The notes under the pieces were generated by a model. That model worked only from the letters and a program-made list of their open reading frames with translations. It made no database searches and was not told where the DNA came from. Positions 10,976-20,776 of a stretch of DNA of 27,723 bases are shown here, piece after piece. The DNA comes from Candidatus Heimdallarchaeota archaeon (lineage in GTDB: Archaea; Asgardarchaeota; Heimdallarchaeia; Heimdallarchaeales; Heimdallarchaeaceae): contig JAAFKI010000198.1 of NCBI GenBank assembly GCA_021399345.1, positions 1 to 27,723 of the forward strand, in the 5' to 3' direction. Both the position numbers and the translations under genes were made by a program. The number at the start of each line of letters is the position of its first letter. Positions within the stretch are counted from its first letter, which is position 1.

Positions 10976-11854
10976 TTAATGAGGGTGCCATTCAACATTT
11001 CCTTCACGATCAATTGTTGCACCTGCATGCCTTAAAGCCCAACATGAAATTACTACGCCCACTGGTAAACTTGCTGGGTGTCTTGCAGCAAATTCCATAT
11101 GAACGTCAAATACAGATGTTCCTTCACCAAGCCCCATTGCACCAATTTCAAGTTTGTTTAGAATATCTTTGAGTTCTTTCTCAATTGAAGCAATATTTTC
11201 ATCTTCATGATATTGATAAAGAGGTCTTAACAAGGCTTTCTTAGCAAGGTTCATACACATATCTTCTCCACCACCGACACCTACACCCACAGTATAAGGA
11301 GGACATGCAAGAGGACCAGCAGCAGCTACCGCTTCTACTACAAACTCTTTCACTCCTTTGATTCCTTTTCCAGGAGGAACCATCTTCATTTTCCCAACAT
11401 TAGAACTTCCTCCGCCTTTTGGCATAGCAATAATTTCACATTTATCTCCTTCAACCAAATCAAAATAGAACCATGGTACATATCCCCTTAAACCTACGTT
11501 ATTTTTGGTATTTCCTTCAAACATATCTACTGCGTTAGGTCTGAGAGGTACTTTCTCTGTTGCTTTCTCTGTTGCTTTGATTAGAGCTGTTTTAACTTCT
11601 GATTTAATAGGAAACTTATCCCCTATTTTAACGAAGAAAGAAACTAATCCAGTATCTTGACACATAGGTTTAGTGAAGGTTTCAGCTAGAATGACATTTT
11701 CGTTAATAGCTTTTAACTGTGATTTACCTAAACTTCCCTCAGTATCTTTTTCGTCTTGAATCAGTGCTTCCTTTACTTCACTTGGAAGTTTAGTTGCTGA
11801 TATTTCGAGTAATTTAGCTGCTGTATCTTCTACTACTTGTGCAATATCCATCAT
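10976..11854 (-). CDS. Class I fumarate hydratase / L(+)-tartrate dehydratase, alpha subunit
   Basis: PMCQDTG, PLRPNAV, MPKGGGS, ACPPYTVGVGVGG, RHPASLPV and SCWALR (Fe-S ligating Cys motifs). Confidence 0.93.
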   Translation of the reverse strand: MMDIAQVVEDTAAKLLEISATKLPSEVKEALIQDEKDTEGSLGKSQLKAINENVILAETFTKPMCQDTGLVSFFVKIGDKFPIKSEVKTALIKATEKATEKVPLRPNAVDMFEGNTKNNVGLRGYVPWFYFDLVEGDKCEIIAMPKGGGSSNVGKMKMVPPGKGIKGVKEFVVEAVAAAGPLACPPYTVGVGVGGGEDMCMNLAKKALLRPLYQYHEDENIASIEKELKDILNKLEIGAMGLGEGTSVFDVHMEFAARHPASLPVGVVISCWALRHAGATIDREGNVEWHPH

Positions 11855-11858
11855 TTTT

Positions 11859-11984
11859 TTACAACTCCTGTAAAATCTTTTCTTTATTAACCTCGATGTT
11901 CTTCTTTGATTCAGCAGTTAGGTTACCACCATGAGTATCAATTGTAACGGTTAAAGGACCAAATTCATCTACTGCGTATACCCA
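11859..11984 (-). pseudogene. Displaced 3' end (41 codons plus stop) of the fumarate hydratase beta-subunit gene
   Basis: Translates WVYAVDEFGPLTVTIDTHGGNLTAESKKNIEVNKEKILQEL*, 26/41 identical and ungapped to the last 41 aa of 14979-15575. Its stop lies 4 nt before the alpha ATG and it contains AGGAG. Confidence 0.92.
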
Positions 11985-12087
11985 AGAGACAATCAAGTTA
12001 ATCAACAATTCCGAGAAAAATTAGCAAGTTTAAAATCTTCTGATATACACTTAAGTTTCTTAATGCATACCTAAAATAGGATTTAAG

Positions 12088-12108
12088 TCAAAACTAAAAC
12101 AAACAAAA
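12088..12108 (-). terminator. Oligo(T) archaeal terminator candidate after the 914-aa gene
   Basis: Minus strand reads ttttgtttgttttagttttga immediately after the stop. Confidence 0.4.
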
Positions 12109-14853
12109 TCAGATATCGTTCCAGTTTGAAATAATAAAATCCCAAGTTTCAGCAACTTTTATTTCCTGATCAGAATTTAGCACTTCCGTCCAAATTTGAT
12201 ATTGAATGTCTTCTACTAGATTATTAAACAAATTATTTTGAATAGGAAGGATAAAAGTTCTATCAATTTCCTTTCTAACATTCCATTTATCAACACCATA
12301 TTTTGTTCCAAAACCTAAAAGAACTTCTTTCCAGCCTCCATTTCCCGTATAATCAAATTGAACTTGTTTGCCGACAACCCGAATTCTAAACCCATTTCGA
12401 GGTTCAATAGAACTAGGTAAATAGAACGACCAATCATCTATGGTTTGTATATATTCTAGTATCCACGAAAACAGAGTTGTCCAAACTTTTTGATACTCAA
12501 ACACTATTGCAAAGAAAAGTTTGATATTGAAATCTCCATCAGAGTTTCTAAAATTATATTTAGTTCCTAGAAAATTCACAGGTTCTACAGGAATACCTGA
12601 CTGAATTAATCTTTTCTTCCAAGCATCAACTATCTTGATAGAATTACTGAATTCAACCCCTCTTACATTGAATTTAATTGGAAACTGGAGTAGCATTTTG
12701 CTTAAAGTTTCATTAGCTTTAAAAAACTGATCCAAATTCAATTTAACACCTAGCCAAGGTAATCTCTTATTAAATCCTACAACTTCAACAGGCGATATTG
12801 TTTTTCGATCAAAGAAAATTAGAGGTTGAATTAATTTTGATCTATGATTTAGATTAAACCCATCTGGTACTTTATATGGTGGTTTCAAATCTCTCAGTAT
12901 TTTCTGTATCCAATTAGGATTATCCAAATAATGTTGCCAAATTTCCTCTTCACATTTAACACTTACACTATCATTTACTAAGAGATCTCCAAAGAATTTA
13001 GATTTCAATTTACTCCAACCATTATAAAAATCAGATTTATTTGTTATGTGAATTCTTTTAAAAATTTTCTCAAGTGAGTAAATACATTCCCAATGCTGGT
13101 GAAATTTATAGGGTACTACAGATTTACTTTTGAAGTTTTTGTCCAGTTTCTTAAGTGTTTTTTGACCTAAATTATTTAATGTTTCTAGACAATGAAACAT
13201 CATCCCACAATTAAAAATTGAGAATTCCTTTATAATACCTTTTTGGCTAAGATTCATTATTTCATAGTAAGTAGTTCTTTGCATTTCATTCATTTTTTTA
13301 ACTATTTCATCTTCAGATATACCATCAAGAATCAAACAATGAGAGAGTTTACCTATAGCATTTTTCAAAATTGAATTGAGCATTGAATAGGTTCTGTATT
13401 CATCAGATGATTGTTTTCTTGATTTTCTCATATTTTTAAGATTTGTATCAAAACAGTCTAGTGATAGTCTTATTGCTCCATCTTTTGTTTTTACAAAGTT
13501 TGGTAGAAATACATCTCGTTGTATTTTAATTGATACAAATTTATCATTGTTATTTATTGTAGTTTTTACATTAAGTTCTATTTCCTGAACAGCTTCATCT
13601 GCAACGGTGAAATACCCGTTTTTCTTTACTAATTTATGAGCATTACCATGTTGAATTAAGGAAATTAATTGGTTTTGTCTTATAGCTCCTTTCAAGATTT
13701 GATTAATTGTAATTTGGGGAAGCCCAGAATCTATCAGAGCATTTCGTAAATTTCCTGATTTAATTTTTTTGTTGAAATTGAAACCCACACCAGAGGTTGT
13801 AAACAAATATTTCTTATTTAGGGCTACAACCAGGTCATCTACTTTCATGAAACTAATCTTTAACTTCGAAAGTTCCTCACGTTTTACTTTCAAAAATGAA
13901 TCAATATCATCAGATATTTGTGTAGTAAATTTGATATTCGTATTTGTTCTAATATAATCAAAAAAACCACCCAAATCTTCTCCTACTTTCATTTCTACAG
14001 TCCTAAGATCATATTTTGTAGAATTTCTGTTTCCAATTACTCCTAACATTATATCATCGAATCCATTGGAACTGGAAAATTTACCTTTTAATCCTCTTAT
14101 TAACACCTTATCCAGCTTTAAAGGAACTCCATTAATATTCCAAAAACGTCGCATTTTATCTTTTTCGAAATTTAGTTTAATTTGAGCCTTTAGAAAACTC
14201 TCTGCTGTATGAGTACTGGTAATTCCTTTAACTCCAAATTTAGTCAATAATACTCTCACATATGAATCAGATTCTGAAGGTTCAAGGGGTGTTGAAAATT
14301 GTTTTAAATCAGGAGAATCAGTGGTTTTCTGAAACTTTTGATAATTTCCAGTTTTTGAATCATTAAAATCCTTTAATAGATGAATCCCAAGCTCATTTAC
14401 ATTACTTTCTCCATTTTGATTTAAAGGACCAAAAACCTTGTTGAGGCTTTCAGAATCATTAATGAGAGAATTTACCCATCTATCATAACTAATTTCTGGT
14501 CTTCCATACAGTTTTTTTACATCCTTTCTGAGACGATTTGAATATTTAATACTTTCATTTAAACGTGAAATTAGAACCTTCTTAAGTTGATTTTCGTTTT
14601 CCTCTAGTTCGTTTTGTATAACAAATCTACTCCTTACAAAGTTTGAATTATTCTGTTTTATCTTTTCCACACTAAGTTCTAGTTTTTGGCCAAGATTCTC
14701 TTTTAAACTATATTTATTCAGGGCCATTAATTTTGTTATTTGTTTCTTTATTAGTTTAATTTTCTTTAATTCTTCTTCTATTTTCTTATTCAAAATATCC
14801 AATTCTATCTGTTTGTAGTTTTTACTTTCAGTTGTCCTTGTATTAGTATTCAT
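12109..14853 (-). CDS. Large hypothetical protein: N-terminal coiled coil, putative PD-(D/E)xK nuclease domain, unknown C-terminal region
   Basis: Intact 914-aa ORF; K/E/L-rich aa 1-115; AE218...NGFD266DIML...TVE287MK289 resembles the restriction-nuclease E...D...ExK signature. Confidence 0.6.
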   Translation of the reverse strand: MNTNTRTTESKNYKQIELDILNKKIEEELKKIKLIKKQITKLMALNKYSLKENLGQKLELSVEKIKQNNSNFVRSRFVIQNELEENENQLKKVLISRLNESIKYSNRLRKDVKKLYGRPEISYDRWVNSLINDSESLNKVFGPLNQNGESNVNELGIHLLKDFNDSKTGNYQKFQKTTDSPDLKQFSTPLEPSESDSYVRVLLTKFGVKGITSTHTAESFLKAQIKLNFEKDKMRRFWNINGVPLKLDKVLIRGLKGKFSSSNGFDDIMLGVIGNRNSTKYDLRTVEMKVGEDLGGFFDYIRTNTNIKFTTQISDDIDSFLKVKREELSKLKISFMKVDDLVVALNKKYLFTTSGVGFNFNKKIKSGNLRNALIDSGLPQITINQILKGAIRQNQLISLIQHGNAHKLVKKNGYFTVADEAVQEIELNVKTTINNNDKFVSIKIQRDVFLPNFVKTKDGAIRLSLDCFDTNLKNMRKSRKQSSDEYRTYSMLNSILKNAIGKLSHCLILDGISEDEIVKKMNEMQRTTYYEIMNLSQKGIIKEFSIFNCGMMFHCLETLNNLGQKTLKKLDKNFKSKSVVPYKFHQHWECIYSLEKIFKRIHITNKSDFYNGWSKLKSKFFGDLLVNDSVSVKCEEEIWQHYLDNPNWIQKILRDLKPPYKVPDGFNLNHRSKLIQPLIFFDRKTISPVEVVGFNKRLPWLGVKLNLDQFFKANETLSKMLLQFPIKFNVRGVEFSNSIKIVDAWKKRLIQSGIPVEPVNFLGTKYNFRNSDGDFNIKLFFAIVFEYQKVWTTLFSWILEYIQTIDDWSFYLPSSIEPRNGFRIRVVGKQVQFDYTGNGGWKEVLLGFGTKYGVDKWNVRKEIDRTFILPIQNNLFNNLVEDIQYQIWTEVLNSDQEIKVAETWDFIISNWNDI

Positions 14854-14978
14854 TACAATAACTCTATAATATAATGTCTAAAATGATTTAAAAACTCAAG
14901 AAAATCTTTAAACTAAATAGAGGGATGCTGAAGCGATTAAGATTTATTGGTCTTATTGAGAAAAACAAGATTTTTACT

Positions 14979-15575
14979 TTACAAATTTTGCAGAATCTTG
15001 TCTTTATTCTCTTCTATCTTTTTTATCCTTTTTTCAGTCATATTACCCCCATGGGTATCGATTGTTATAGTTAAAGGACCAAAGTTTTCAACATCGAAGA
15101 GCCAAAGTGATTCTGGCATACCTAGTTCCTCATACCAAAAAACATCCTTTACTTTTTTAATTCGATCAGCTGCTAATAGAGCTGCACCTCCAGTAAAGTA
15201 ACCATAGATGCAAGTTTCTTCTTGGCATGCTTTTGTTGTTCTTGCACCCATTCCTCCTTTTCCAATGATAATTCCAGGTTGAAAAGTTTTGATAAACTCA
15301 TCTTGGAAGATTTCCATTCTTGCTGAGGTAGTTGGGCCAGCTGCAACAACAGTCCATTCTCCTTGCTCATTCTTCTTCATTACAGGACCACAGTGAAAGA
15401 GTCCTATACCTTTGAAATCAACAGGTGGTTGTTTTCCTTCTTTATGTAACTCCAGAGCTTTCAAATGAGCTTCATCACGTGCTGTAACAACAGTTCCTGT
15501 AATATAAACTACATCCCCTATTTTGATTTTCTTAAGTTCTTCAGGGGGTAGTGGAGTAGTTAAGTGATATTCCAT
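14979..15575 (-). CDS. Class I fumarate hydratase / L(+)-tartrate dehydratase, beta subunit
   Basis: GDVVYITG...TARDEAH, HCGPV, AAGPTTSARME, IIGKGGM and LGMPESLW...FGPLTITIDTHG. Confidence 0.94.
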   Translation of the reverse strand: MEYHLTTPLPPEELKKIKIGDVVYITGTVVTARDEAHLKALELHKEGKQPPVDFKGIGLFHCGPVMKKNEQGEWTVVAAGPTTSARMEIFQDEFIKTFQPGIIIGKGGMGARTTKACQEETCIYGYFTGGAALLAADRIKKVKDVFWYEELGMPESLWLFDVENFGPLTITIDTHGGNMTEKRIKKIEENKDKILQNL

Positions 15576-15683: not shown

Positions 15684-16457
15684 GTGATTTTACTGACATC
15701 AATAATTGACATCATCAATTCTGTGGCTCAACTTATTAAAGAAGCAGACAATGTTGTTATATTCACTGGAGCAGGAATTAGTGTTCCTAGTGGTGTTCCT
15801 GATTTCCGTTCTCCAGGAGGACTGTGGGATAAATACGACCCTTTTGAGGTTTCTACACTAAAAGCTTTCAAGAAAAAACCAGAAAAAGTCTGGGAGTTTT
15901 TTAGAGACTTGTATAAGAACTTTGGAGATACTAAACCAAATATTGCACATTATGCTGTAACTGAAATTCAAGAGATGTTTGGAGAAAATAAGATTCACAT
16001 TGTCACTCAGAATATTGATAGCTTACATATCAAAGCAGGTTCCAAAAATGTTTATGAAGTCCATGGAACTGCAGAGATGATGCATTGTATAAAGTGCTCT
16101 TTTGAAGAGTATTTGGATGAAGATAAGCATTTGAAAGTTTTACCTTATCCTGAATGTCCAAAATGTGGAAAACCTATGAAACCCAAGGTAGTGCTTTTTG
16201 AAGAGCTCTTGGATCCTTCAATTATGCGAGAAGCCATGAGAATAGCTGTTAAGAGTGATATAGCAATAGGAATAGGAACAAGTTTAGGAATTTTCCCTGC
16301 TGCAGATGTTTTGTTAGCTCCACCTCCTTCTACTAAAAAAGCTATTTTTAATTTGACACCAACTTACTATGATCACCTTATTCATTATAGGATACGAGGA
16401 GATGTTATTGAAACATTACCTTGGTTAGTAGAATCTTTGAAAAAAGAAGAAGAGTAG
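15684..16457 (+). CDS. cobB: NAD-dependent protein deacylase (sirtuin/Sir2)
   Basis: FTGAGISVPSGVPDFRS, TQNIDSLH, VHG, CIKC/CPKC zinc site and GTSL. Confidence 0.93.
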   Translation: MILLTSIIDIINSVAQLIKEADNVVIFTGAGISVPSGVPDFRSPGGLWDKYDPFEVSTLKAFKKKPEKVWEFFRDLYKNFGDTKPNIAHYAVTEIQEMFGENKIHIVTQNIDSLHIKAGSKNVYEVHGTAEMMHCIKCSFEEYLDEDKHLKVLPYPECPKCGKPMKPKVVLFEELLDPSIMREAMRIAVKSDIAIGIGTSLGIFPAADVLLAPPPSTKKAIFNLTPTYYDHLIHYRIRGDVIETLPWLVESLKKEEE

Positions 16458-16540
16458 CTTTTCGTTTTTTATTATGTAGCCATTTTCATTTACATACAGA
16501 AAGTTTAAAGTACTGAAACTATTAATTTAATGTCGTAAGG

Positions 16541-17551
16541 TTGATTCGTATGTCTTTTGAAGAAAACAAGCAATATGAAGAAGAAAAGAAAGAAGAAAGT
16601 CAATTCACAAGTGAATTACAAGACGCTATTGAAGAACAGAGAGAAGAAATTGTCAAACAGGAACCAGTTAATGAAAAAGAACCTGAACCAGAGCCTGAAC
16701 CCGAACCAGAAGAAGTCAAAGAAGAGACAGTAGCTCCTGTTAAAGCTGCACCCCCCGTAGAGGAGAAGAAGAAAAAAGAAGAAAGAATATCTTATTCTCA
16801 CATCGATGTAGATTTATGGCGCACAAAAATGCATAAAGAAGAGTGGGGTATCAGACTAGATGCTCAAAGAGCTCAAAAAGATAGACAATGGACTAGAGAT
16901 ATGGATGCTATTGGAACTGTAAAAGTTGATGGAGAAGATTATGGACTGCTCGCAATCAGAGAAAATCTTTGGAAAGGAAAAGATCCTCTCGAGAGAAGAT
17001 TTGTTATGAAACTCTTTTCGCCAAGCGGTTATTGGAGAGCGAGTATTGAAAGATTACAAGGTGAGAGTTTTGCTAATTCTCATGCTACTAAAGAACCATG
17101 TCCAGCGTATGTTTGTATTTTCAAGCATACACGTAACTTGTTTAGAATTCGAAGGCTATCTCATTTTCCACGTTTTCAAGGTCAGATCTTTGGTTTCAGT
17201 TATTTAGATGAAAACGATAAATTCCAGTCATTTGTCATTGATGATAAAAGACTTAGATTAGGATCTGATTGGGTAATAAAAAATATTCATAATAAAGTTA
17301 TAGCAAAAATAAATGGAAAGTTTTTAAATGTTGGCGGAAGGTTCAAAATCGATATATTTGAAGAGAAATTAGCCAAAGATAAAACTTTTTACAACATGTT
17401 AATACTATTCAGTTCAACTCTTAGATTCTACAGAAATATAAAGAAGAACATAAAGAAGTCACTTAAAGAATTGAAAATTTCAGACACTGAAGTAAAACTT
17501 GATGATAGTGAATCAAATCTCTATCTCAACCCAAGGAAGCTCTCAATTTAG
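16541..17551 (+). CDS. Hypothetical protein: acidic disordered N-terminus with EP repeat, possible LURP-one/tubby/scramblase-like C-terminal domain; likely start ATG 16550
   Basis: E/K-rich aa 1-80 with EPEPEPEPEP; C-terminal FVIDDK...DWVIKN...VIAKINGKF...FKIDI followed by a hydrophobic helix. Confidence 0.6.
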   Translation: MIRMSFEENKQYEEEKKEESQFTSELQDAIEEQREEIVKQEPVNEKEPEPEPEPEPEEVKEETVAPVKAAPPVEEKKKKEERISYSHIDVDLWRTKMHKEEWGIRLDAQRAQKDRQWTRDMDAIGTVKVDGEDYGLLAIRENLWKGKDPLERRFVMKLFSPSGYWRASIERLQGESFANSHATKEPCPAYVCIFKHTRNLFRIRRLSHFPRFQGQIFGFSYLDENDKFQSFVIDDKRLRLGSDWVIKNIHNKVIAKINGKFLNVGGRFKIDIFEEKLAKDKTFYNMLILFSSTLRFYRNIKKNIKKSLKELKISDTEVKLDDSESNLYLNPRKLSI

Positions 17552-17578
17552 CTTCTCTTTTATATTTTTCTTTTTTTT
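17552..17578 (+). terminator. Oligo(T) terminator candidate
   Basis: cttctcttttatatttttctttttttt directly after the stop at 17551. Confidence 0.45.
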
Positions 17579-17651
17579 ACTCAAGTGTTCAGATTCTTTA
17601 ATTAATAGCCTTTTTATATTTAAAACTAGTATTTAAACTAGAGGAAGAATA

Positions 17652-19055
17652 ATGCCTACAGAAGTTAAGATATTCTTTAGAGTAGCTTTTGATCTTATTC
17701 TAGAATCAAATCAAAAAATAGAGGATAGAGAATTATTAACCTACCTAAAAGCTAATCCAAAGAAAGAAAAGGAATACAGGGCATTACCAATAAATTATTT
17801 CAAAATCATTCAAATTCTTGAAAAAAAGAATATCAAAATTAATTCATCCATTTTACAAGATACAAGCTTATCTCATGTTTACCAAAGTAAATTCAAAGTG
17901 AGACTGGAGTTAAGAGAATATCAAGAACAAGCTTTAGATGAATTTCTACAAAATGATGGTAAAGGCATCATTATTTTACCAACTGCAGCAGGTAAAACCA
18001 TTATTGGATTAAAAGCTATTGAAAAGCTAAAACAAAAAACAGTTATTGTTGTTCCGACCAAGAACTTACTCTACCAATGGATAGAGCACTTGAAGAAATA
18101 TTCTTCTCTTACTCGTGACATGATTGGTCAACTTGGAGACCAGATAAGAGAGATTAAAGAGATTACAGTAACAACTTATGATAGTGCAAGATTAAACATT
18201 AATCTACTAAGAAAAAATTTCAATTTTATCATTCTAGATGAAGCACATCATGCAGGAGCAAAAGAAACACTCAAAGTGCTTAGAGGCTTACCTTCAGCTT
18301 ATCGCTTAGGACTAACCGCAACACCAGATCGATCTGATCGAGGAGAAGAACGTCTATACAAATTAATTGGGAGTCCAATTAAGGTTGCTAGTGTTTCAGA
18401 CCTTTCAAAAAAAGGATTTGTAGCGGAATATGAACAAATGGCCATAAAAGTTCCTTTAGATGAAGAAGAAAGAGAAACCTATGATAAGCTCATGGCAACA
18501 TACAGAGAGTATCTCCGAAAAAGGAACATTCAGATTAGAACTCCTGAAGATTATGAAAGATATCTCATTTTCAGAGTAAATCAAGACCATGAAGCAAAAG
18601 AAGCTTTAGATGCTCATCGCTTGGCAAGGAATCTTGTTTTTTCATCAAAGGCAAAACTGAGTAAAATCGAGGAAATTCTAGTAAAACACCAAGAGGACCA
18701 TATAATTATTTTTTCAGAGTTTAATGATATGGTATATGATATCAGTCGAAGGCATTTAATTCCAGCAATCACTCATGAAACAAAGAGTGCTGAACGCAGT
18801 GATATACTACGAAAATTTAGCAGAGGTACTTACTCTAAGATAGTTACTGGTAAAGTTCTTGATGAGGGGTGGGATTGTGGAAATGTAAATGTTGGAATAA
18901 TAGTAAGTGGAACAGGGCAAGCAAGGCAATTTATTCAAAGATTAGGAAGAATTCTACGACCAAAGGAAGGAAAAGCTATCCTCTATGAACTTGTTACACC
19001 AGAAAGTCTTGAGACTGCAACGGTCAGAAGAAGAAAACAAAGTGATGTGATCTAA
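17652..19055 (+). CDS. xpb: XPB/Rad25-like superfamily 2 helicase
   Basis: LREYQ Q-motif, PTAAGKT, DEAH, GLTAT, LDEGWD and QRLGRILR. Confidence 0.9.
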   Translation: MPTEVKIFFRVAFDLILESNQKIEDRELLTYLKANPKKEKEYRALPINYFKIIQILEKKNIKINSSILQDTSLSHVYQSKFKVRLELREYQEQALDEFLQNDGKGIIILPTAAGKTIIGLKAIEKLKQKTVIVVPTKNLLYQWIEHLKKYSSLTRDMIGQLGDQIREIKEITVTTYDSARLNINLLRKNFNFIILDEAHHAGAKETLKVLRGLPSAYRLGLTATPDRSDRGEERLYKLIGSPIKVASVSDLSKKGFVAEYEQMAIKVPLDEEERETYDKLMATYREYLRKRNIQIRTPEDYERYLIFRVNQDHEAKEALDAHRLARNLVFSSKAKLSKIEEILVKHQEDHIIIFSEFNDMVYDISRRHLIPAITHETKSAERSDILRKFSRGTYSKIVTGKVLDEGWDCGNVNVGIIVSGTGQARQFIQRLGRILRPKEGKAILYELVTPESLETATVRRRKQSDVI

Positions 19056-20776
19056 TGAGAATAGCTTTATCTGATTTGGAACATGAAATAAGGGGAACTG
19101 GAAATAATACAGTGTTTGTTCCGATTTTCTTACAAACAGAAGAACGAAACAAAGTTCTTGCTTATATTCAATTTCTCGAAAAAAACTTAGGAAGAAAGAA
19201 ATCAGAAGTATTATTCGAAATTGTTGAAGATCTTTTTCCATCATATAAAATAATCAAATCTCTAAATGTATCTTCTGCGAGGTTTTATTATTATTCTTCT
19301 AAATCAACAGACGAGATTATAGGTGTTAGAAAAACAAAAGAACCTAAGAAGACTGGAAGTGACATCACCTCATTTATTGCCGATAGTGTTTCTAATAAAA
19401 ACGCCATTTCTAGTATGACTCCAGCTCAGTTTCGATCCAAAGTATATGAAAATGTTTCCAAGAAACAAAATAGTTTTGTTATCAATGAATTAAGAGAGGA
19501 AATAGTTAGCAATATTGAACGAGAGTTGGGAATTCCTGCCTTTTCTCTAGATAAACTTCTGTATAGAGATATAGATTCAGAAAGAGTACTTTTGAAACAT
19601 GATAATGTTAATCCTTTGCAACTAATCAGATATTTTAATTATGACACGATTGAAACTATCTTGTGTTTTTCAATAGATTTTCAAATGCGAATAAAAAAAT
19701 TACCAGGATATCTAGCAAAAAAAGTCATCTATCTCTCAAAGAAAAATTATGTTTTTACTGACATAATTCTTGAAGAAGATGGTTACAAAATTACAATTCA
19801 CCCCCCACTGGAACTTTATACTGAGCAAGGAGGATGGGGGAAGAACATTGCTAACGTCGCTACATATATTCTACGAGTTTTATTGCGAGAAGAAATAGAT
19901 TTCCAAATTAATGCTATTGTTAAACCAAGAAACAGAAAGGCAAAGTTTTCACTTAACTCATCTGAATTACCACTACTCCCTACCTTCAAAGCAGATGAAG
20001 ATGATGGAATCAATTTTAGACCGGAAATAGATTCTAAAGTAGAAAACCAATTCTTAAAAACTTGGAGAAATTATCATGGTTGGAAGGCAACTCCGGAACC
20101 TGAAGCTATAATTATCGGAAAAAAAATGTATGTCCCTGATTTTCTTTTACAACGAGGGGAAAAAACACTTTATTTAGAGATTGTTGGTTTCTATACAACA
20201 AAATACATCTTGAAGAAGAAAAAACAGATGGAGGAGTTAGATAAAGTAGACATTCATATCATCTATGTTATTGATGAAAATCTTAAACCCCATTTCACAG
20301 AAAAGAGAAAAATCAATCACATATTCTACACTGGAGTAAGGATACCTAACAATGAATTAAGCCAACTATTAGAACAACACTATTCAGATTTTGAAGAGAG
20401 ACTTCCTGTTTTTCAAGCGATAATAACAGAAGTAGGAAGGGAACTAGACAAGAGCAAAAAAAGTATAACTCTCAATGATTTGGATACAAAATTCAATGCT
20501 TATTCAACAGATGAAACAACCAAAATACTCTCTTCCTCAGAAGTGGATAAAATATACAAAGAATTTAACTTGACATTTTTAACAAGTTATGGATTGGTTC
20601 ACTCTGAAGTTTTTGACACTGTTCAGAAGCATATGAAATCTATTGGTAAGTCATCTCTTTTGGCTTTAAAAGACCAATTTCCTGAGTTCAAAGAGGCAAT
20701 AATAGCAATTTGTCAACATATAGGTTGTACTGTTAAATGGAAATCAATTGATGAGGTAGAAATTTCTTTGGACTAG
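19055..20776 (+). CDS. bax1: DUF790/Bax1-like endonuclease, partner of XPB
   Basis: Overlaps the xpb stop (TAATG); nuclease core DSKVE...EPE...VPDF...YLEIVGFYT. Confidence 0.82.
   Translation: MRIALSDLEHEIRGTGNNTVFVPIFLQTEERNKVLAYIQFLEKNLGRKKSEVLFEIVEDLFPSYKIIKSLNVSSARFYYYSSKSTDEIIGVRKTKEPKKTGSDITSFIADSVSNKNAISSMTPAQFRSKVYENVSKKQNSFVINELREEIVSNIERELGIPAFSLDKLLYRDIDSERVLLKHDNVNPLQLIRYFNYDTIETILCFSIDFQMRIKKLPGYLAKKVIYLSKKNYVFTDIILEEDGYKITIHPPLELYTEQGGWGKNIANVATYILRVLLREEIDFQINAIVKPRNRKAKFSLNSSELPLLPTFKADEDDGINFRPEIDSKVENQFLKTWRNYHGWKATPEPEAIIIGKKMYVPDFLLQRGEKTLYLEIVGFYTTKYILKKKKQMEELDKVDIHIIYVIDENLKPHFTEKRKINHIFYTGVRIPNNELSQLLEQHYSDFEERLPVFQAIITEVGRELDKSKKSITLNDLDTKFNAYSTDETTKILSSSEVDKIYKEFNLTFLTSYGLVHSEVFDTVQKHMKSIGKSSLLALKDQFPEFKEAIIAICQHIGCTVKWKSIDEVEISLD

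Follow-up and report, generated by a model that had tools for sequence, protein, structure and literature searches.

Mobile elements that bring a substitute for the end of the gene they enter bear on a cassette found in a Candidatus Heimdallarchaeota archaeon of the family Heimdallarchaeaceae, in which a gene for a 914-residue protein, here called P0001, is lodged between the fumarase genes fumB and fumA. The stretch of DNA that was analysed, referred to as the window, is 27,723 nucleotides long (contig JAAFKI010000198.1 of assembly GCA_021399345.1, positions 1 to 27,723 of the forward strand). At the icd gene of Escherichia coli, e14 and phage 21 bring an alternative 3' end and the native end is left downstream as a pseudogene. 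PD-(D/E)xK homing endonucleases of the I-Ssp6803I type, which are small, intron-encoded and tetrameric, indicate that restriction-fold enzymes can home, and a link with DNA rearrangement is also known for the Rpn nucleases. In fungal mitochondria the mORF elements were first described as atp6-ORF360 of Allomyces macrogynus and later as hybrids of atp6, atp9, cox2 and nad3 in Glomus sp.; their layout is a foreign C-terminus, an endonuclease open reading frame (ORF) and, downstream, a native C* remnant whose nearest match is the sister species, and in Allomyces the endonuclease has been reported to be biochemically responsible for mobility (PMC3630166). Comparison of the window with related genomes suggests that P0001 is a large, lineage-specific PD-(D/E)xK nuclease which drives the homing of a selfish 3.12-kb cassette into fumB at about codon 155, a reading that is held with about even confidence.

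The fumB cassette resembles the mORF elements in having an in-frame foreign gene end, a free-standing endonuclease or endonuclease-like ORF and a displaced native end, with neither intron nor intein. The native remnant is 91 - 98% identical to the sister sequence in mORF elements and 88 - 96% identical in the fumB cassette, and the inserted end is divergent in both (64 - 81% and 66 - 75% respectively). The differences are that the fumB cassette is found on an Asgard archaeal chromosome whereas mORF elements occur in mitochondrial DNA, that a predicted PD-(D/E)xK multidomain protein of 914 residues takes the place of a LAGLIDADG or GIY-YIG enzyme of ~200 - 350 residues, that the 914-residue ORF is separate, with its own promoter-like box, rather than an in-frame fusion, and that the cassette has a promoter-like box pointing outward, towards the next gene of the operon. 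The elements e14 and phage 21, in contrast, are multi-gene prophages with a tyrosine integrase, whereas the fumB cassette has no detectable recombinase. Enzymes of the I-Ssp6803I type showed no similarity to P0001 in any search, and no relationship was found between P0001 and the characterised homing enzymes; its fold class is predicted to be PD-(D/E)xK, and its size and architecture are unprecedented.

Anatomy and ancestry of the fumB cassette

Read along the minus strand, on which all the features of the cassette lie, the gene order is fumB (Fumerase_C), the 914-residue gene and fumA (Fumerase), and this order recurs at homologous loci. The cassette, ~3.12 kb in length, is situated at fumB codon ~155 (GMPE|CLW). 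The host part of fumB, codons 1 - 154 with the Fumerase_C domain (15114 - 15575), has 92 - 97% nucleotide identity to that of genomes G009, G017, G024 and G025 and, in the same range, to the nearest empty-site genomes. The replacement 3' end that follows it (codons 155 - 198 and the stop, 14979 - 15113) is borne by the element, being 72 - 75% identical to the alleles of the host clade, yet 89% identical to the end found in genome G023 and 86% identical to that in G002, although the 5' fumB parts of those two genomes are only ~79 - 81% identical to that of the genome containing the window (G000). A spacer (14854 - 14978) runs from the replacement stop codon to the 914-residue gene (12109 - 14853) and holds a conserved promoter-like box, TTTTTAAATCATTT, ~35 nucleotides before the ATG. 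Beyond the gene is the non-coding 3' end of the cassette (11991 - 12108), with a conserved box, AAGATTTTAAA, which faces fumA and is common to both of the element lineages described below. The displaced native end of fumB, or remnant (11859 - 11990), has a frameshift at its start, abuts the start of fumA and matches the functional 3' ends in the empty-site genomes G009, G017 and G024 at 88% identity; the 128-nucleotide copy of the fumB 3' end that lies just upstream of fumA matches the end of the intact gene, 3120 nucleotides away, at 70%. The fumA gene (10976 - 11854) encodes the alpha subunit of a class I fumarase, a protein 97 - 98% identical to its nearest relatives. The plus-strand reading of 12109 - 14853 is riddled with stops, and the GC content of the gene is 29%, as against 38 - 39% in fumA and fumB.

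The minimal cassette, found in G000, G023, G002 and G008, consists of the replacement fumB end, a spacer of ~125 nucleotides, the 914-residue gene and a tail of ~120 nucleotides. The 914-residue gene is its sole non-nested ORF of at least 50 residues, the only other ORF being one of 62 residues that lies antisense inside it. Terminal inverted repeats were absent from the cassette beyond AT-rich chance pairs, and a search of Rfam revealed no RNA in it; a lone sub-threshold row for CRISPR-DR (E 0.64) was rejected. The 31-nucleotide chimeric sequence that the earlier note had put together as an empty site does not occur in the window, as would be expected of a reconstruction.

An important consideration in attempting to establish how the cassette came to be at this site is whether related genomes lack it, and fumB and fumA were accordingly searched in 31 genomes of the family. 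Most have an empty site, in which fumA begins ~3 - 12 nucleotides after fumB (7 - 10 nucleotides in most). Seven are occupied (G000, G023, G002, G014 and G008, together with G015 and G025, each of which is split over two contigs), and in these the 914-residue gene lies between fumB and a fumB remnant of 42 - 56 codons (residues ~143/158 - 198) adjoining fumA. The remnants start at E155-C156-L-W and the hybrid fumB changes its ancestry at the same point. Whilst the replacement ends cluster by element lineage (85 - 94%), each remnant compared is closest to the nearest empty-site genome, with identities of 88% for G000, 96% for G025 (to G017), 94% for G002 (to G003) and 89% for G014 (to G026). 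In a host tree based on fumB codons 1 - 154 and fumA, the occupied genomes are spread over five supported clades, all of which also include genomes with an empty site. The proteins of the elements fall into two deeply separated lineages with ~49% amino acid identity between them, A (G000, G023, G002) and B (G014, G015, G025, G008), and yet G000, with an element of lineage A, and G025, with one of lineage B, share one tight host clade. The host-like remnants and the incongruence between host and element mean that vertical inheritance with loss cannot explain the pattern and, judging from these sequence comparisons, the cassette has evidently entered the same fumB site independently several times. 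In every event, of which there were at least five that were independent, both exchange points are at the borders of the cassette and the host-type 5' part of fumB and a host-type remnant have been kept, a pattern that speaks for breakage or recombination at a defined site and against generic exchange through flanking homology. The anatomy of the cassette, its repeated insertion at one site and the travelling of the replacement end together with the gene all have direct support in these comparisons. The data document repeated lateral exchange of DNA, and recombination, between species of Heimdallarchaeaceae, whose genetics are otherwise inaccessible, and they carry a warning for phylogenetics and annotation in that the last 44 codons of fumB are foreign in occupied genomes.

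All of the junctions lie within a few bases of ...CC|NGAATGY..., and a palindrome, CATTCA(N2-4)TGAATG, made up of the end of the cassette and the first bases of the remnant, is present at the right junction in G025 (locus L015), G023 (L043) and G002 (L044). Both element lineages have it, although in G000 it has decayed and in G008 and G014 it is missing. Such features raise the question of whether the cassette integrates site-specifically, as an element of the type represented by e14 and phage 21 at icd, with an attachment site (attP) that carries a substitute 3' end for the target and with the integration step performed either by P0001, as a recombinase that has escaped recognition, or by an integrase acting in trans. 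The structure of the product, a hybrid gene end followed by cargo and the displaced native end, is identical to that left by integrases that insert into the 3' ends of genes, and the common junction sequence and the palindrome in three genomes are also in keeping with this explanation. Against it, no tyrosine or serine recombinase family was detected in the cassette or in P0001 using Pfam and NCBIfam, PD-(D/E)xK enzymes are not known to integrate alone and, apart from the homology that the duplicated gene ends have to each other, the left and right junctions share no identical attachment core. Integration of this type is therefore considered improbable.

Some of the empty alleles themselves have a mosaic appearance. 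In G018 (L033), G016 (L038) and G031 (L039) codons 155 - 176 are nearer to the replacement end of lineage A than to native ends (83 - 89% versus 76 - 82%) and the second half of the end is native; G018 shares an identical run of 36 nucleotides with the replacement end of G023, and in the empty allele of G009 (L028) the Ser codon is TCA, as is typical of occupied alleles. Alleles of this kind could have been left behind when a cassette was lost through recombination between the duplicated gene ends, or could represent lineages that were the source of replacement ends.

P0001, its relatives and its predicted fold

The earlier note, made from the window alone, took P0001 to be an orphan protein, a description that does not hold. 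A word-indexed search yielded 13 full-length homologues of 742 - 936 residues with 48 - 81% identity, all of those with a source name coming from metagenome-assembled genomes of Heimdallarchaeia, and an exhaustive HMMER scan added remote relatives at 23 - 33% identity. In a profile search across 301 Asgard genomes the protein family was present in 17 of the 28 that belong, like the window, to Heimdallarchaeaceae, as against one of 272 others, and it is patchy within a single genus. The genome containing the window holds further partial relatives: an ORF of 1340 residues at G000:C17:9628-10494 that matches the middle of the profile and one of 150 residues at G000:C41:24741-25145 that matches the C-terminal domain, which is one example of the occurrence of this domain as separate short ORFs.

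Known families gave no match to P0001 at the level of sequence. Searches with the whole protein found nothing at E<=10 in Pfam, NCBIfam, PADLOC or the sequences of the PDB, and no family was matched by four sub-ranges of the protein or by a PDB profile search with the alignment of homologues. P0001 is basic, with an isoelectric point (pI) of 9.5. The earlier note had described a coiled-coil-like N-terminus, a PD-(D/E)xK signature at HTAE(218)S, NGFD(266)D and TVE(287)MK(289), and some 600 basic residues to which it could assign nothing, and in each of these respects its reading is borne out: the motif positions are correct, ~180 N-terminal residues are modelled, at low confidence, as long helices consistent with a coiled coil, and residues 330 - 914 have a pI of 9.4 and match no sequence family at E<=10. 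E218, D266, E287 and K289 are invariant in an alignment of the 13 close homologues and at least 90% conserved over 20 sequences, which include the C-termini of giant proteins, down to 23 - 28% identity; G264-F265 and E557, the latter within the motif HCLET, are likewise conserved in the alignment with distant members. Replacement of ExK by NxK is seen in the homologue P0020 only.

The full-length AlphaFold model of P0001 is mediocre, with a mean predicted local distance difference test score (pLDDT) of 71 and a disordered N-terminal coiled coil, and residues 181 - 600 folded alone gave a pLDDT of 86.8 and a predicted template modelling score of 0.90. Assignment of secondary structure with DSSP placed E218 within a helix (214 - 228), D266 immediately before a strand (267 - 273) and E287 and K289 within a further strand (280 - 290); as modelled, this is the canonical PD-(D/E)xK arrangement. 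Among the ten clusters of the ESM Atlas nearest to the model of residues 181 - 600, nine were PD-(D/E)xK families, the near clusters comprising Transposase_31/Rpn (YhgA), PDDEXK_4, PDDEXK_2, Mrr_cat (twice), HamA, UL24 and R-HINP1I; the HamA cluster had a template modelling (TM) score of 0.62 by target over 151 aligned residues, with a root mean square deviation (rmsd) of 3.7. Exhaustive structural alignment against 48,161 PDB chains also gave HamA, the nuclease of the Hachiman system (8vxy), as the best match (Z 5.9, 160 residues aligned, rmsd 4.0), with a Z score that exceeded that of the next unrelated row by 1.6, and MspI and PaqCI appeared lower in the list. A search of BFVD with the models of P0001 gave no match at E<=0.001, the results of a wide structural search with the full-length model were swamped by coiled-coil matches, and a feature search of the ESM Atlas was uninformative, with scores of 0.76.

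The PD-(D/E)xK matches cover residues ~11 - 417 of the model and bridge residues 300 - 550, which suggests that the core is split by an insertion of ~250 residues, and it is because of this split that the absolute structural scores are modest. On the models, the N-terminal region of long, coiled-coil-like helices (residues 1 - 180, 14314 - 14853, modelled at low confidence) is followed by the first half of the core (residues 190 - 300, 13954 - 14286), in which E218 is on helix 1, strand 2 runs from D266 and E287-x-K289 is on strand 3; these assignments also draw on conservation and on the fold matches. The insertion within the nuclease fold (residues 301 - 550, 13204 - 13953), delimited from the model and the structural alignments, is large, made up of helices and a beta-meander, and predicted with a pLDDT above 90. 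The second half of the core (residues 551 - 595, 13069 - 13203) consists of a strand, a helix and a strand and includes the invariant motifs HCLET (554 - 558) and HQHW (585 - 588), and a C-terminal domain (residues 600 - 914, 12112 - 13056), mostly at a pLDDT of 80 - 90, completes the protein. For the insertion (residues 300 - 550) and the 315 C-terminal residues no known fold was matched in structural searches of the full and 181 - 600 models. The region of residues 1 - 180 is missing from distant homologues, and the giant proteins have transmembrane and extracellular regions there instead.

With its predicted fold nearest to PD-(D/E)xK nucleases and the four residues of the signature kept in remote homologues, P0001 very probably carries a restriction-fold PD-(D/E)xK domain, as the earlier note had suspected, and both the fold class and the conservation of the motif have direct support. 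HamA (PF08878) shares with it the PD-(D/E)xK core and an ExK catalytic strand. Unlike HamA, P0001 lacks a sequence match to PF08878 (Pfam gave none at E<=10 with the whole protein, residues 185 - 310 or residues 540 - 600, and PADLOC gave none either) and lacks the helicase partner HamB, the neighbours of the cassette gene being fumB and fumA only; it has in addition the insertion of ~250 residues in the core, the coiled coil and the C-terminal domain of 315 residues, and it is found in a gene-targeted cassette, HamA in a defence operon. The Rpn/YhgA-like proteins (Transposase_31, PDDEXK_2) and Mrr share the fold superfamily of P0001 and figure in the ten Atlas clusters closest to its model, but they have no detectable sequence kinship to it, are much smaller, have a single domain and have not been linked to the replacement of target-gene ends.

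It is conceivable that the nuclease-like domain is catalytically dead or has been repurposed, for instance to bind DNA or RNA, as a scaffold or in regulation, and that P0001 is the product of an ordinary lineage-specific gene at a locus prone to rearrangement. The low absolute level of the structural matches would allow for this, as would the two thirds of P0001 that are without an assignable fold and the replacement of ExK by NxK in one distant homologue. However, the conservation of the full E...D...ExK set and of E557 across sequences at 23 - 28% identity argues for retained catalysis, and recurrent insertion at the same site together with a co-travelling recoded gene end is not the behaviour of an ordinary gene, so that a dead or repurposed domain is regarded as very unlikely.

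Homing nuclease or passenger effector

The earlier note had left open whether P0001 is a mobility driver, cleaving the empty fumarase allele, or a defence or toxin effector. The choice stays between these two, with the anatomy of the cassette constituting strong but indirect support for a driver. No second candidate for that part came to light in the cassette among non-nested ORFs of at least 50 residues, recombinase families or Rfam RNAs. We infer catalysis, target specificity and the role of P0001, as opposed to another factor, in driving insertion. If P0001 is a homing nuclease, it would cut the uninterrupted fumB allele at or near the site at codon ~155, and the occupied allele would serve as the template for repair of the break. 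Repair of the left end would proceed through the 5' part of fumB and that of the right end through the remnant of the donor, so that copying would bring in the nuclease gene along with the replacement 3' end, and the recipient's own fumB 3' end would become a new remnant. The diverged fumB 3' end, being in frame, would limit harm to the host and probably also destroy the target site, and the outward promoter-like box for fumA may be a second way in which the cassette limits such harm.

A number of observations weigh against the homing of the cassette by P0001. The protein, at 914 residues, is to our knowledge far above the size of any known homing endonuclease. The matches on which its fold class is based are weak in absolute terms (best Z 5.9, query-normalised TM score <=0.30), and Foldseek searches of the PDB with the full and 181 - 600 models found nothing at E<=0.001, the only rows being restriction endonuclease, UL24 and ABC-ATPase rows at the level of noise. 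The elements of G000, G023 and G002 have diverged to 79 - 82% amino acid identity, so that the transfers are not very recent. In G010 (L042, G010:C76 1486-6490) fumB and fumA are followed by two reverse-strand genes, for a 415-residue membrane protein and a protein of 297 residues, by a fumB 3' remnant and by a second full fumA, and there is no member of the 914-residue family at this locus; duplicated gene ends can thus arise without a protein of the P0001 type. Larger cassettes carry extra genes for secreted proteins, NosD-like and others, and the unit can therefore carry passengers. Members of the family are also found in settings other than the cassette. In both complete Heimdallarchaeum-like genomes apparently resident paralogues are located beside the gene for the small subunit of DNA polymerase, one of them adjoining a TnpB gene, and a module of ~730 residues, homologous to P0001 residues ~186 - 912 and retaining the catalytic motif, forms the C-terminus of giant proteins of 4628 residues (L048, G002:C38, 2058-15944) and 2965 - 2979 residues (L049, G028:C25, 43-8940). 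The larger of these has an N-terminal signal or transmembrane segment, a very long region that is presumably extracellular and, just ahead of the module, a group of transmembrane helices; a Pfam search of the two giants gave no domain. Both the paralogues by the polymerase gene and a module that ends giant signal-peptide and transmembrane proteins fit conflict or defence effectors better than they fit homing enzymes. Self-comparison of five paralogue loci with tblastx, in search of flanking gene-end duplications, returned low-complexity noise only.

It may be, therefore, that P0001 is the effector of a conflict system, such as a defence, abortive-infection or toxin nuclease with fold kin in HamA, Mrr and Rpn, and that it is a passenger in a cassette moved by hotspot recombination or by a factor acting in trans and kept because it is beneficial or addictive. 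Its closest folds are those of the defence and restriction nucleases HamA, Mrr, MspI and HinP1I, and a lineage-specific expansion with variable architectures, among them giant surface and transmembrane fusions, is typical of conflict systems, and the distribution within a genus is patchy. The further variable cargo of some cassettes and the unrelated insertion in G010, with its fumB remnant at the same locus, lend themselves to the same explanation. On the other hand PADLOC gives no match and the cassette contains no partner gene, be it a helicase as in Hachiman, an immunity gene or any other non-nested ORF of at least 50 residues. Nor was a polymorphic-toxin layout found, the 914-residue form having only a coiled-coil N-terminus and no ORF downstream. 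The minimal unit always retains the 914-residue gene, and the precise coincidence of both exchange points with the borders of the cassette, in no fewer than five independent events, is what would be expected of a break or recombination at a defined site. An effector carried as a passenger is consequently considered rather unlikely, albeit the main competitor to the homing nuclease.

Genes for signal-peptide proteins are found beside members of the family in the larger cassettes and at the locus of the distant homologue P0017 (L004 8921-9366, L005 3876-6728, L045 4331-6416 and L006 10171-15383). They encode a NosD-like beta-helix protein of 494 - 554 residues and others of 364, 386, 471 and ~609 residues, and these neighbours may be hitch-hiking cargo or may have a functional link; the NosD-like cargo proteins have no similarity to the giant proteins.

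Taken further, the homing reading leads to the tentative suggestion, in which confidence falls a little short of even, that the cassette represents an undescribed class of chromosomal homing element in Heimdallarchaeaceae that has neither intron nor intein, that encodes a giant PD-(D/E)xK nuclease (~900 residues) of a new family, and that invades a gene of central metabolism, restores it by means of a recoded 3' end and supplies a new promoter to the operon partner downstream. Such an element would be an archaeal counterpart of the mORF elements, and its module would have been recruited as the cytoplasmic end of surface proteins several thousand residues long. If P0001 is the driver, this would be the first homing element of the mORF type outside organelles, as far as the literature showed, located in the archaeal lineage closest to eukaryotes and using a nuclease family without a characterised member. 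An enzyme of ~900 residues with a single recognition site, placed within a conserved gene of metabolism, would also be a new scaffold for long-target nucleases. Giant proteins have been noted as a feature of the mobile elements of Heimdallarchaeia (aloposons), and were P0001 a passenger effector it would still represent a new lineage-restricted PD-(D/E)xK family, one that connects cassettes of a single gene to giant proteins of a kind typical of these elements (PMC8813620).

Other features of the operon and its surroundings

A second duplication of a gene end is present in the operon of G023 (L003 8965-10823 / L043 1532-3384), where fumA is followed by a gene for a protein of 222 residues and then by a 68-residue remnant corresponding to fumA residues 226 - 292. 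The 222-residue gene was considered as a possible relative of P0001 and rejected, as it shows no similarity and is often resident next to fumA; several other genomes likewise have a homologue of it downstream of fumA. Decayed fragments of the fumA 3' end are also found in G030.

On the far side of fumB the window contains (15684 - 20776) a SIR2-family gene, a gene for a protein of 336 residues without a family, a gene for an XPB/RAD25-type helicase (467 residues) and a gene for a DUF790 protein (573 residues), which we take to be a Bax1-like partner. Relatives that carry the cassette have kept this syntenic block. The helicase and DUF790 pair, ~3 kb away, is a matter of conserved host synteny and is kept beside cassettes and empty sites alike.

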